DNA of 64,000 nt from contig JAHJEV010000003.1 in assembly GCA_018825365.1 (NCBI GenBank), positions 317,387 to 381,386 of the forward strand, given 5' to 3'. The notes beneath the pieces are model-generated. The model worked only from the letters and a program-made list of their open reading frames with translations. It did no database searches and had not been told where the DNA came from. The stretch's first letter is position 1. Each line of letters begins with the position of its first letter. Shown here one piece after another: positions 10,584 to 26,409 of this stretch. The translations under genes and the position numbers were made by a program. This stretch comes from Patescibacteria group bacterium (GTDB lineage: Bacteria > Patescibacteriota > WWE3 > UBA101185 > UBA10185).

Positions 10584-11129
10584 CTAATTTATAAAACCTA
10601 TCTTGTTTAAAGGCCAAAATCTAAATATCACACGACCTATAATTCTATTTTTATCAACAAGTCCTATGTACCTGGAATCCAAAGATTCCCCGCGGTTGTC
10701 ACCCAAAAAGGCATATTGCTGCGGTCCAAGTCTTAGTGCCCTACCCTCTTTTATTGCACTTCCCCCCACCGTGCATGTATCCTTATCAAGATATTCCTCT
10801 TCTAACTGGTATTTTTGGCCATCTTTTGAGACCACAACCCCACAATCGATTATTTTAAATATATCCCCAGGAATACCAATAACTCTTTTTATGAAATGCC
10901 TTTCGTTATCTCCCGGGGAAAGAAACACCACAATCTCCCCTCTTTTTAGCGGAATAAATATTCCGCTAATTCTATCCACAAGAATTCTTTCCCCAGAATG
11001 AAAAGAAGGTTCCATACTTGGCCCCCAAACTATTTCCACAGACGCAACAAAAAGGTACAATGCCAACACAATTACCATTGAGGATATGAGGGCTTCCGAA
11101 AGTTCTAAAATTAATTCTTTAAACTTCAT
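10584..11129 (-). CDS. lepB: Signal peptidase I
   Basis: 181 aa; N-terminal TM; SMEPSF catalytic-Ser box and GDNRGESLDSR box typical of the S26 family. Confidence 0.8.
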   Translation of the reverse strand: MKFKELILELSEALISSMVIVLALYLFVASVEIVWGPSMEPSFHSGERILVDRISGIFIPLKRGEIVVFLSPGDNERHFIKRVIGIPGDIFKIIDCGVVVSKDGQKYQLEEEYLDKDTCTVGGSAIKEGRALRLGPQQYAFLGDNRGESLDSRYIGLVDKNRIIGRVIFRFWPLNKIGFIN

Positions 11130-22716: not shown

Positions 22717-23187
22717 ATGAGACATCGAGTTAACAAGAAAACACTAAACAGAACGTACGATCAAAGAAGAGCCTTATTTACGGGGATGGCGGCTGATTTG
22801 ATTCAAAACGGAAAGATAAATACAACACTTGCCAAAGCAAAAGTCATAAGACCATACGTTGAAAAACTTGTCACCAGGGCAGTAAAGGCTAGTAAATCCA
22901 GCGATAAAATCGTAAAGTTCAATACCTTAAAGCTTATCAGAAAACACCTTCGATCCGAGCTTGCGATAAGAAAACTTTTAGTTGACGTGGCACCTAAATT
23001 CGAGAACAGAGCCGGAGGATACACAAGGATTGTAAAAATAGGAAACAGAGATGGGGACAATGCATCTCTAGCCAGAATAGAATTTGTTGAAAATACATCA
23101 GCAAAAGTAGAAGCAAAAACCGAGAAAAAAACTACCAAAAAGAAAATTGTAAAAGAAGAAAAGAAAGATGAAAAGAACACCAAATAA
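22717..23187 (+). CDS. rplQ: 50S ribosomal protein L17 with Lys-rich C-terminal extension
   Basis: 156 aa; L17 core followed by a KTEKKTTKKKIVKEEKKDEKNTK tail. Confidence 0.9.
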   Translation: MRHRVNKKTLNRTYDQRRALFTGMAADLIQNGKINTTLAKAKVIRPYVEKLVTRAVKASKSSDKIVKFNTLKLIRKHLRSELAIRKLLVDVAPKFENRAGGYTRIVKIGNRDGDNASLARIEFVENTSAKVEAKTEKKTTKKKIVKEEKKDEKNTK

Positions 23188-23600: not shown

Positions 23601-24197
23601 ATGCCGCAAACAAAGAAAGAAACCACAAAAAAAGAGAAAAAGAAAGTAACAAAGAAGGTAAAAACTCCTATTAAAAAAGTTGTTAAAAAAGAAGTTAAGA
23701 AAAAACAACCCATAAAAGAGGTGGTTGTTGAGGAAGTAAAAGTAGAAACTCCTGTAGTTGAAGAGACAAAAGAGGAAGTAAAGAAAGTAAAACCATTAAA
23801 GAAAAACTTTATCGCTGGAAATGGAAGAAGAAAAACTGCAACAGCAAGAGTGTTTTTATGGGAAGAAAAAGGCGATTTCACGGTTAATGGTCTTAAGATC
23901 GAAAAGTATTTTCCATCCATAATAGATCAATCCAAATGGGTCAGACCGTTTCACATAATAGGTGTCTCTCATCCGGATTCAAAATATTCAGCAAGCATTA
24001 AGGTTTCGGGTTCCGGTAAACCATCTCAGATGGATGCCATTGTTTTGGCTATAGCTAAAGCATTGTGCAAAATAAATCCGGAATTTGATAAAGCCTTAAG
24101 AAAGCAAGGTTTATTAACTAGAGACTCAAGAATGGTTGAAAGAAAGAAACCATACCTTCACAAGGCAAGAAAAAGACCTCAGTACTCAAAAAGATAG
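23601..24197 (+). CDS. rpsI: 30S ribosomal protein S9 with a ~70-aa Lys/Glu/Val-rich N-terminal extension
   Basis: 198 aa; C-terminal S9 core ends ...KARKRPQYSKR; the N-terminal low-complexity KKEKKKVTKKVKTPIKK... extension is histone-H1-like. Confidence 0.9.
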   Translation: MPQTKKETTKKEKKKVTKKVKTPIKKVVKKEVKKKQPIKEVVVEEVKVETPVVEETKEEVKKVKPLKKNFIAGNGRRKTATARVFLWEEKGDFTVNGLKIEKYFPSIIDQSKWVRPFHIIGVSHPDSKYSASIKVSGSGKPSQMDAIVLAIAKALCKINPEFDKALRKQGLLTRDSRMVERKKPYLHKARKRPQYSKR

Positions 24198-24201
24198 TCT
24201 T

Positions 24202-24483
24202 TCACTTAAGAATTATATTTTCAAAATCTATCAATATGTCTTTGAGTTCCTGTATTTTCTTTCCCAGATCCAATACCCTACTTTGTTTTACACTCATAAA
24301 AGTAGCGTCATAAACTTGAGATATCTCTTCAAGAACCCTCAGGGGAGGAACGCATCTCCCTCTTTCGTAGGCACATATTGTTTTACCGGTTTTTCCAATT
24401 TTCTTACCAAACCTATCTTGAGACAGGTTTTTTTGTTCCCTTATACCCCTAATCCTTTTTCCAATGTCTACTGTATTACTCAT
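24202..24483 (-). CDS. XRE-family helix-turn-helix transcriptional regulator
   Basis: 93 aa; IRGIREQKNLSQDRFGKKIGKTGKTICAYERGRCVP is an HTH_3-like motif; divergent from radC. Confidence 0.6.
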   Translation of the reverse strand: MSNTVDIGKRIRGIREQKNLSQDRFGKKIGKTGKTICAYERGRCVPPLRVLEEISQVYDATFMSVKQSRVLDLGKKIQELKDILIDFENIILK

Positions 24484-24521: not shown

Positions 24522-25235
24522 TTGAAACTAACTAATATCATACTCAGCGAATATGATATGAAGATTAAAGATTTACAAAAAGAAGAAAAACCAAGAGAGA
24601 AGCTGGTAGATAAAGGTCCGGAGGCCCTCACTAATACCGAACTTCTATCAATAATTTTAAGGTCCGGGGGAGTAGATTGCACATCAACTGACTTAGCACG
24701 AAATTTAATAAATAAGTTTTCAGGTTTGGATAAGCTTGTTTACACAGATATTACTCAACTTATGGATATACCAAATATCGGAATTGCCAAGGCTACCGGA
24801 ATACTGGCGTTGGGTGAACTAGCAAAGAGACTGACCATAGAAAATAATATTAAAGGAAGTGTCATTAAAAAACCTCAGGACGTTTTTGATTCAGTAAAAA
24901 AGGAGTTTTCAGGAAAACAGGAAGAGCATCTTTATCTAATCTCCCTAGATAGAAAAAACAAAATTCTTTCAAAGGACTTGATCTCAAAAGGTACTTTAAC
25001 GGAGACTTTAATACACCCAAGAGAAATATTTAAAAAAGCGTTAACGAAAAACGCATCCTCGATAATTCTCGTGCACAATCATCCATCAGAAGAGTCTTGC
25101 CCCAGCCTTGAAGATGTTAAGGTGACAAAAAGAATTGCAAAAACAGGAATCGAAATAGGAATTCCATTAATGGACCATCTTGTAGTTACTAAAACCGAAT
25201 TTACCAGCATGAAAGCACAAAATCTACTTAATTAA
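24522..25235 (+). CDS. radC: RadC-like JAB/MPN domain protein (UPF0758)
   Basis: 237 aa; N-terminal HhH region and C-terminal JAMM motif HNHPSEESCPSLEDVKVTKR. Confidence 0.85.
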   Translation: MKLTNIILSEYDMKIKDLQKEEKPREKLVDKGPEALTNTELLSIILRSGGVDCTSTDLARNLINKFSGLDKLVYTDITQLMDIPNIGIAKATGILALGELAKRLTIENNIKGSVIKKPQDVFDSVKKEFSGKQEEHLYLISLDRKNKILSKDLISKGTLTETLIHPREIFKKALTKNASSIILVHNHPSEESCPSLEDVKVTKRIAKTGIEIGIPLMDHLVVTKTEFTSMKAQNLLN

Positions 25236-25247
25236 AAACGAAGGGAG

Positions 25248-25868
25248 GTGAAAAAAATGATTAAAAAAATACTCAGTAAAATTCTAAGAAACAAAGGGCT
25301 TCTCACATTGTATGGGTCCCTTATTATCTTCTCGGGCGTAGTTGTAGGAGTCACTTACGCAGCTTTTTCCGACAAGTCCAATGTTCTTGGGGCAACCTTT
25401 ACGGTAGGAAGTGCAGACCTAAAGTTTTTGAGTAATCTTGCAAACGAGACCGACCCCACCACCTATGTAGATGAGCTTCCAGGGCCAAATTTCCAAAACG
25501 TAAGTCCTATTTGGCAAGAAAACTACACACTCAAGCTAATAAACCGTGGGACCTCAAAGCTAGCCATAACGACCAACTCTGCTTATGAAACTGCAAAAGA
25601 TCCTAAAGATTTAAGAAGTGACATCCTAGTTGAGATAATAAAATGGAACGATCTTGATAAAGACGGGGAAATAGATTCTGGTGAAGAAACCCTAAGTTTA
25701 GGAAAGAAAACTATAATAAAATGGAAAACGGAGGGGTTTAGCCTAGGAGAATTAGAAGCCGGACAGATAATACCGATAATATTAAGATTCACTGCCCCCA
25801 CCTTAACAGATACACAACAAGGCGCAACCGGAATATTTGATTTTGAGTTTAAGTCGATACAAATGTAA
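25248..25868 (+). CDS. Secreted TasA/camelysin-like protein with a SipW-cognate class signal peptide
   Basis: 206 aa; N-terminal hydrophobic segment then VTYAAFSDKSNVLGATFTVGSADLKF, matching the SipW-cognate signal consensus (...TyAyFSDtE...NtFtaGtldL) seen in TasA/CalY-family proteins; immediately upstream of a SipW-type peptidase. Confidence 0.55.
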   Translation: MKKMIKKILSKILRNKGLLTLYGSLIIFSGVVVGVTYAAFSDKSNVLGATFTVGSADLKFLSNLANETDPTTYVDELPGPNFQNVSPIWQENYTLKLINRGTSKLAITTNSAYETAKDPKDLRSDILVEIIKWNDLDKDGEIDSGEETLSLGKKTIIKWKTEGFSLGELEAGQIIPIILRFTAPTLTDTQQGATGIFDFEFKSIQM

Positions 25869-25877
25869 TAAAGGTCA

Positions 25878-25907
25878 ACCTGCCCTCCCTGCCGGGCAGG
25901 TTTTGTT
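25878..25907 (+). terminator. Rho-independent terminator-like hairpin after the TasA-like gene
   Basis: cctgccctccctgccgggcagg (GC stem cctgccc/gggcagg) followed by TTTTGTT, ending 2 nt before the sipW ATG. Confidence 0.5.
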
Positions 25908-25909
25908 AA

Positions 25910-26356
25910 ATGAAATTTATCGTAGCAACATGTCTAATACTGATTTTGATCATTTCTATGTATAAATATAGGGTATTCACCGTAGTTTCGGGGTCAATGG
26001 AACCAATTATTAAAAATGGATCTCTCGTCATCGTTAAAAAAACTTCAACATACAAAACAAACGATTTAGTCACCTTTAAAAATATAGAAGGAACAGGCAC
26101 TGTGACTCATCGGATTGTAAAAATAGAACAATCACAAGGAAAATACCTAATATTCACAAAAGGAGACGGGAACGCAAATGTCGATCAAGTTGCAATAAAA
26201 CCGGAGGATATTATCGGCAAGGTTGTATTCACATTGCCTCTTGCCGGAAAGTTCTTCTTACTTGTTTCTTCACAAAAACTTTTACCTATAACTTTCTACA
26301 TTCCCGCAGGGCTTTTGTTTGGAACTTTACTTGGAAAACATAAACGAGACATTTAA
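25910..26356 (+). CDS. sipW: Signal peptidase I, SipW (archaeal/ER) type
   Basis: 148 aa; VVSGSMEPIIKNGSLVIV catalytic-Ser box in the SipW style; N-terminal and C-terminal TM segments. Confidence 0.7.
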   Translation: MKFIVATCLILILIISMYKYRVFTVVSGSMEPIIKNGSLVIVKKTSTYKTNDLVTFKNIEGTGTVTHRIVKIEQSQGKYLIFTKGDGNANVDQVAIKPEDIIGKVVFTLPLAGKFFLLVSSQKLLPITFYIPAGLLFGTLLGKHKRDI

Positions 26357-26409
26357 ATAAATAGGCGGTTTTTAAGGATACTAAGGGATTTTTAATATAT
26401 AATCACACC

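Follow-up and report, generated by a model that had tools for sequence, protein, structure and literature searches.

The window analysed here is a 64,000-nt stretch of contig JAHJEV010000003.1 from a Patescibacteria group bacterium, and all coordinates without a locus label are window positions. On its + strand it carries a gene for a small secreted protein, termed the substrate gene below, and, with the start 41 nt downstream of it, a gene for a SipW-type signal peptidase. The two genes are separated by a GC-rich hairpin. An earlier note, made from the sequence alone, had read the pair as a SipW-type peptidase with its cognate TasA-like substrate. Both of its open reading frames were confirmed on this strand at the positions given there, and the evidence from signal, peptidase and fold supports the interpretation overall. 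Taken as a whole, the explanation that we consider probable is a substrate-peptidase module of the TasA kind, the product of which would form fibres by donor-strand exchange. The features involved are as follows.

25243..25250, + strand: Shine-Dalgarno sequence GGGAGGTG, with GGAGG 8 nt 5' of ATG 25257; it encloses the GTG taken as the start by the program that listed open reading frames
25257..25868, + strand: substrate gene, for a beta-sandwich protein of the TasA superfamily made as a 203-aa precursor, with a 168-aa mature form
25257..25361, + strand: signal peptide, residues 1-35, with a basic n-region, a hydrophobic core and the c-region T-Y-A; predicted cleavage between A35 and A36
25362..25406, + strand: candidate N-terminal donor strand AFSDKSNVLGATFTV, with low predicted local distance difference test (pLDDT) values in the monomer model, high conservation and the aromatic-2/acidic-4 signature
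25650..25685, + strand: candidate EF-hand-like calcium-binding loop DLDKDGEIDSGE between two beta-strands, with its pattern conserved in the family
25877..25902, + strand: GC-rich hairpin with a 9-bp stem and an 8-nt loop, beginning 8 nt past the substrate stop
25901..25907, + strand: T-run TTTTGTT, the first two T of which are paired in the stem, ending 2 nt before the peptidase ATG
25910..26356, + strand: SipW-type signal peptidase I (S26B, endoplasmic reticulum (ER)/archaeal type; TIGR02228), 148 aa, without a free Shine-Dalgarno sequence

The start of the substrate gene requires comment. The GTG at 25248, chosen by the listing program, sits within the gene's own Shine-Dalgarno sequence, and the real start is therefore almost certainly ATG 25257, giving 203 aa. 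The public record GCA_018813105.1 (contig JAHJCK010000002.1) also calls a 203-aa protein, and AAGGAGG or GGAGG precedes the gene in nearly all family loci. The secreted protein that the earlier note had described as 206 aa long does have the SipW-cognate signal, but it is shorter than described. A Pfam search with the 203-aa protein matched no domain. The mature form has 168 aa in nearly every species and a pI of about 4.5, with Asp and Glu making up about 14% of its residues (41 loci). Being acidic and Cys-free, and of this size, it should lend itself readily to expression and testing. The family is small: we found 112 close homologues in a set of 5.8 billion proteins, and among 1.84 billion proteins there were only 190 representatives at E<=1e-3, 33 of them at E<=1e-30. 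A scan of species-representative genomes yielded 48 loci, all in Patescibacteria, and those that are specifically named belong to candidate division WWE3.

The signal-region peptide VTYAAFSDKSNVLGATFTVGSADLKF, quoted in the earlier note, is present in the substrate protein. The N-terminus passes TIGR04088, the NCBIfam model cognate_SipW for SipW-dependent signal peptides, as the note had anticipated, although the margin is narrow (about 20.5 bits against a curated cutoff of 19 bits, E ~3.7e-4, match over residues 21-52). The same model matches 21 of the 44 aligned family members at E<=0.01, and NCBI already names one of the family (P0026) as a SipW-dependent-type signal peptide-containing protein. 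Around the cleavage site, 36 of 41 loci have Ala at P1, 38 have Phe at P2' and 36 have Asp at P4'. The conserved residues are T/A at P3/P1 and A/F/D at P1'/P2'/P4', and in 38 of the 41 loci the mature N-terminus has the motif A-F-[ST]-D. After cleavage at TYA↓AF, the predicted mature N-terminus of the window protein is AFSDKSNVLGATFTVGSADL. TasA is cut at a parallel position, TWA↓AFND compared with TYA↓AFSD, and its mature start was verified against PDB 8aur.

The 148-aa protein is of the archaeal/ER type and carries a VSGSMEP box, in agreement with the earlier note. It passes TIGR02228, the model for archaeal/ER-type signal peptidase I (89.3 bits, cutoff 51.85), and fails the bacterial-type model TIGR02227 (38.4 bits, cutoff 47). 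It stays far below the Bacillus SipW equivalog model NF046067, with 77.9 bits against 190, and therefore belongs to the SipW type without being an equivalog of the Bacillus enzyme. No variation is seen among 19-27 relatives at S29-M-x-P, H67-R68, G85-D86-x-N88 and D92. We take Ser29, His67 and Asp86 to have the catalytic roles that Ser47, His87 and Asp106 have in B. subtilis SipW. Judged by sequence, the Ser/His signature, with His in place of the bacterial Lys, is that of a SipW/ER-type peptidase. There are two hydrophobic segments, one at each end of the protein, which is 100% identical to the NCBI entry 'signal peptidase I [Patescibacteria group bacterium]'. The peptidase gene lies directly downstream of the substrate gene in 28 of the 48 species-level loci. 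A second signal peptidase is encoded elsewhere in the window.

10584..11129, - strand: housekeeping signal peptidase I of the LepB type, with GPSMEP and KRVIG (lysine) boxes; 126.9 bits on TIGR02227, cutoff 47

The presence of this enzyme makes the SipW-type peptidase an additional, specialised one. LepB reportedly disfavours substrates with Phe at P2' (PMC10269814). Together with the separate LepB-type gene, the Phe found at P2' in 38 of 41 loci suggests that the substrate may depend on the SipW-type enzyme, rather than on LepB, for its cleavage.

The fold provides the link to TasA. An AlphaFold2 model built on the 44-sequence family alignment has a mean pLDDT of 84.7 and a predicted template modelling score of 0.70, with residues 50-203 above 90 and arranged in an eight-strand beta-sandwich. 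Two independent methods place the TasA fibre first among the PDB matches, followed by the CanX cannulae, the DUF1102 tube, the Sulfolobus thread and AbpA. The structure prediction that had been proposed as a check thus returned a confident jelly-roll/beta-sandwich core resembling TasA. In a profile comparison with hhalign, the family aligns with TasA at E 7e-5 and a probability of 63%, over the signal, the donor strand and the first strands. The TasA sequence used is identical to PDB 8aur over residues 28-261. The family models proposed for the same purpose gave a divided answer: the window protein does not match PF12389 (Peptidase_M73/TasA) at E<=1, but a distant family member, P0175, passes it with 42.3 bits, the match lying in the N-terminal 86 residues. 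Because a folded domain of 168 aa is produced, we rejected the JGI label 'predicted ribosomally synthesized peptide with SipW-like signal peptide'.

The segment that is not part of the modelled sandwich lies directly past the predicted cleavage site. Residues 38-49 have a pLDDT below 50 in the monomer, and yet column identity is 78% in the unplaced N-terminal segment, compared with 66% in the folded core, as expected for a strand that binds another subunit. The conservation runs 15-20 residues beyond the cleavage site. Mature TasA begins AFNDIKSKDATFASGTLDL, its donor strand comprises residues 28-38, and F29, I32 and F39 are buried in neighbouring subunits (PMC9674648). The donor strands of AbpX-like proteins of the TasA superfamily have position 2 occupied by an aromatic residue and position 4 by an acidic one (preprint 10.64898/2026.01.04.697558), a rule that the mature N-terminus of the substrate satisfies. 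Fold similarity, N-terminal signature and conservation pattern together suggest that the subunits most likely polymerise by donor-strand exchange.

The EF-hand-like loop fits the 12 coordinating positions of a PROSITE PS00018-type pattern and misfits the hydrophobic 13th. In the family, the 12 positions are matched by 37 of 44 members and the full pattern by 20. The family profile finds EF-hand proteins weakly. The very large proteins that it matches, SdrD_B and FG-GAP repeat proteins, have the same combination of strand and loop and carry a calcium loop of this type. Judged by its DxDxDGxIDxGE spacing, the loop probably binds calcium. Calcium-dependent assembly has been documented for cannulae and AbpX (preprint 10.64898/2026.01.04.697558), and calcium may similarly aid the assembly of the window protein.

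A strong hairpin with a T-run 2 nt before the sipW ATG had been pointed out in the earlier note, and this description is accurate. The arms AACCTGCCC (25877-25885) and GGGCAGGTT (25894-25902) are followed by TTGTT, AA and the ATG at 25910, and the predicted minimum free energy is -17.3 kcal/mol (z-score -2.8 relative to dinucleotide shuffles). The 5' side contains the direct repeat CCTGCC (25879-25884 and 25888-25893), so that GGCAGG in the 3' arm can pair in two registers, either as the 9-bp stem with the 8-nt loop, or as a 5-bp stem with a 3-nt loop that leads directly into TTTTGTT. With its GC-rich stem and T-run, the window hairpin fits the pattern of an intrinsic terminator, whereas most orthologous hairpins are without a U-tract. 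Of 47 substrate loci, 51% have a hairpin of at least this kind of stability (-10 kcal/mol or below) at most 55 nt from the stop, compared with 3% of 333 other genes at these loci (Mann-Whitney p = 7e-18). Stem sequences differ completely between loci, and enrichment of the structure in spite of this argues for selection on structure. Conservation was judged by such enrichment rather than by covariation, because a MAFFT alignment places the short hairpins out of register. Some loci with the hairpin have a downstream peptidase gene and others do not, and where both are present, the start codon follows 1-9 nt past the stem in 14 of 16 loci, without a free Shine-Dalgarno sequence. An Rfam search of the hairpin region found no family.

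At nine loci (L005, L019, L024, L029, L030, L033, L035, L040 and L046), hairpins with otherwise unrelated stems, at most 90 nt past the substrate stop, share an apical CCCGGG, often as ACCCGGG[GA]. Compared with the rest of the loci, this motif shows a 23-fold enrichment. The apex could be a recognition loop for a protein or an RNase. The window hairpin has CCGGGC in place of CCCGGG.

The working model that joins these elements is as follows. The Sec system would export the 203-aa precursor, and the membrane-bound SipW-type peptidase, with Ser29 and His67, would remove the 35-residue signal peptide at TYA↓AFSD; these two steps are well supported by homology. A 168-aa acidic beta-sandwich subunit would be released. 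Outside the cell, the N-terminal strand (AFSDKSNVLGATF...) would insert into the next subunit, and donor-strand exchange would yield a thin surface or matrix fibre. Calcium in the EF-hand-like loop could stabilise the assembly or trigger it outside the cell. The strong ribosome binding site of the substrate gene, and a hairpin abutting a peptidase start without a free ribosome binding site, would provide for much structural protein and little enzyme. In the organism, the substrate could form a surface fibre of uncultured bacteria of the WWE3 lineage.

Two observations weigh against this model. Codon adaptation relative to ribosomal-protein genes does not support high expression of the substrate, which ranks 38th of 43 genes in a codon adaptation index range of about 0.61-0.71. 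Moreover, the peptidase gene is absent from the 4-kb flanks in 20 of the 48 loci, where clpB or prfB comes directly next. Loci of this kind are L020, L022, L023, L025, L026, L028-L032, L034-L037, L040-L045 and L049. The AF[ST]D motif at the cleavage site and in the donor strand is kept in loci without an adjacent peptidase. The missing pairing also speaks for the view that the 148-aa enzyme is a general signal peptidase that is adjacent by accident, as does the abundance of SipW-type enzymes in the Candidate Phyla Radiation (CPR), with 2,462 relatives at E<=1e-10. We nevertheless regard this view as very improbable. A canonical LepB-type enzyme is encoded in the same window, a SipW-type gene stands beside proteins with the same N-terminal signature in four CPR lineages, and the P2' Phe is reportedly disfavoured by LepB (PMC10269814). 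As for the product, the main rival of a fibre is a SipW-processed, calcium-binding protein of the surface or cell wall, monomeric or lattice-forming, such as an adhesin or an envelope component, with an N-terminus that serves as peptidase site only. This seems unlikely, because the top structure matches by both methods are donor-strand filaments specifically, because the conserved stretch past the cleavage site lies in the segment that the monomer model leaves unplaced and exceeds the needs of a peptidase site, and because the aromatic-2/acidic-4 signature agrees with known donor strands. That the substrate is a secreted metalloprotease of the camelysin type is next to impossible. The SipW-cognate signal class includes camelysin, and the distant relative mentioned above matches PF12389, but the window protein does not. 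It has no His, no Cys and no HExxH motif, the family has no conserved His, and a camelysin-type metalloprotease was therefore rejected.

The role of the hairpin is a separate matter. It may be a mere terminator or 3' stabiliser of the radC-substrate transcript that plays no part in setting peptidase levels, with the peptidase expressed independently or only by incidental read-through. We consider this doubtful. Equally strong hairpins at loci without a downstream peptidase (for example L026, L028 and L044) and the T-run of the window hairpin are in its favour, as are seven peptidase-bearing loci of the RAAC2/RIFOXY group of WWE3, which have no hairpin. On the other side, no promoter-like site was found directly upstream of the peptidase gene, and the 7 nt between stem and ATG leave no room for a promoter, so that peptidase mRNA must pass through the hairpin. 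With a start 1-9 nt past the stem and no free Shine-Dalgarno sequence, the geometry must affect the initiation of translation, and most of the hairpins are without the U-tract needed for efficient intrinsic termination. In the simplest reading, the hairpin stabilises the 3' end of the structural-gene message, or terminates it in part, and also limits translation of the peptidase. The attenuator role suggested in the earlier note is, from the sequence, plausible but unproven.

With respect to known systems, the window module is most readily compared with the tapA-sipW-tasA operon of B. subtilis (TasA fibre, PDB 8aur), which likewise combines a substrate with a SipW-type peptidase. In contrast to the Bacillus operon, it has no TapA-like nucleator or anchor nearby, its order is substrate before peptidase with a hairpin between them, and it lies between radC and prfB, beside a cluster of ribosomal-protein genes. 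Full-length and N-terminal hidden Markov models found no second protein with the substrate N-terminus, for example a TapA-like one, in the 64-kb window. The mature protein is smaller than TasA (168 versus 234 aa), is without the C-terminal extension of TasA and without a PF12389 match, and has the EF-hand-like calcium loop. Archaeal filaments of the TasA superfamily were also compared, namely AbpA bundling pili (7ueg), Pyrodictium cannulae CanA/CanX (9h8b), AbpX fibrils, DUF1102 tubes (9bac) and Sulfolobus threads (7pnb). The window family differs from all of these in being bacterial (CPR). Its calcium site, if real, would be a single canonical DxDxDG loop within one subunit, whereas the archaeal site is built from acidic residues of three protomers. 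The AbpX-linked peptidase has ten transmembrane helices, the window peptidase only its two hydrophobic segments. Compared with the TIGR04088 class and other SipW pairs in the CPR, the WWE3 family is a distinct and tightly conserved 168-aa clade, invisible to PF12389, in a fixed neighbourhood of housekeeping genes.

The module is thus a compact, lineage-specific addition to the TasA/SipW kind, and not a new kind of system. Current understanding is not overturned, since the signal class is already recognised by annotation pipelines, and the literature already mentions TasA homologues in Patescibacteria. The interest of the family is that it adds to the TasA superfamily a clade missed by Pfam PF12389, namely a conserved and syntenic TasA-like subunit of WWE3-type genomes, which is accompanied by its own peptidase and a conserved RNA hairpin and has a probable calcium switch. 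The surface structures and the attachment of the ultra-small cells of CPR/Patescibacteria are known mainly for type IV pili. A bolder version of the model, which is quite unlikely to hold in full, would make the module a minimal self-sufficient fibre system, without chaperone, usher or TapA-like nucleator, and a core trait of WWE3 (Katanobacteria). The single 168-aa subunit would polymerise by donor-strand exchange once its EF-hand-like loop is filled by extracellular calcium. The conserved hairpin would keep the peptidase sub-stoichiometric, and the fraction of subunits left with a signal peptide would serve as membrane anchors. If so, minimal fibres could be an attachment or matrix structure of episymbiont-like WWE3 cells, in place of type IV pili or in addition to them.

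Modules of a SipW-type peptidase and a substrate are widespread in the CPR. In contigs of Shapirobacteria, Portnoybacteria and Pacebacteria, a SipW-type peptidase gene stands beside proteins that match PF12389 or have the signature GGT.AYF.D...GN.F.AG..D, and pairing in these further lineages points to a general CPR feature. In Shapirobacteria, two peptidase genes flank a 201-aa protein, and a 209-aa substrate-like protein is encoded upstream. In Portnoybacteria and Pacebacteria, there are PF12389-type proteins of 357-560 aa, and lamin-tail-domain proteins of 687-789 aa directly downstream of the peptidase. These larger modules are located at L052 3223-5572, L053 1-6964 and L054 447-6545. Wang et al. 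2022 (PMC9245690) devote a single sentence to PF12389 homologues in Patescibacteria, and our literature search turned up no further treatment of them.

Upstream of the substrate gene, the window contains two further genes that may belong to the same unit or control it.

24558..25235, + strand: radC, encoding a JAB-domain protein (Pfam RadC, 135 bits), directly 5' of the substrate gene
24202..24483, - strand: XRE-family helix-turn-helix (HTH) regulator, divergent (Pfam HTH_31/HTH_3)

The start of radC listed at 24522 is too far upstream, and ATG 24558 (225 aa), as in the public annotation, is most likely correct. The gap to the substrate gene is 21 nt in the window, the two genes overlap by 4 nt in WWE3 relatives, and they are probably co-transcribed. 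The synteny is stable: rpsI is followed by the opposite-strand XRE-family HTH gene, radC, the substrate gene, optionally the peptidase gene and clpB, and then by prfB and ftsK. The HTH gene is found upstream in 42 of the 48 loci, and in the four loci that lack radC (L023, L042, L043 and L045) it is directly divergent from the substrate gene, a parallel to SinR beside tasA. Its product is a candidate regulator of the radC-substrate-peptidase unit. A palindrome, ATATCATACTC-AGC-GAATATGATAT, at 24535-24559 overlaps the radC start. In the HTH-radC intergenic region of L033, L035 and L039, ATTGCAAT-N4-ATTGCAAT is found exactly, and a one-mismatch variant occurs at the same relative position in L014 and L016. 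The palindromes are candidate operators for the divergent HTH gene.

In most relatives, a gene for an 854-aa ClpB-type AAA+ protein lies between the peptidase gene and prfB (compare L001 6073-8637). In the window, prfB is directly 3' of the peptidase gene (26357-26409), so that clpB must have been lost here or relocated. The nearest public record, the 99%-identical L004 (CAZLHE010000004.1), and many relatives ('binchicken'/SRP-derived) are labelled 'uncultured Candidatus Saccharibacteria'. The label looks like a generic placeholder, because all specifically named syntenic relatives are WWE3. In the adjoining ribosomal-protein cluster, the rpsI product (23601-24197) has an N-terminal extension of about 55 residues, rich in Lys, Glu and Val, and is 198 aa long, compared with 144 aa in WWE3 relatives. 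The L17 protein encoded by rplQ (22717-23187) has a Lys-rich C-terminal tail.

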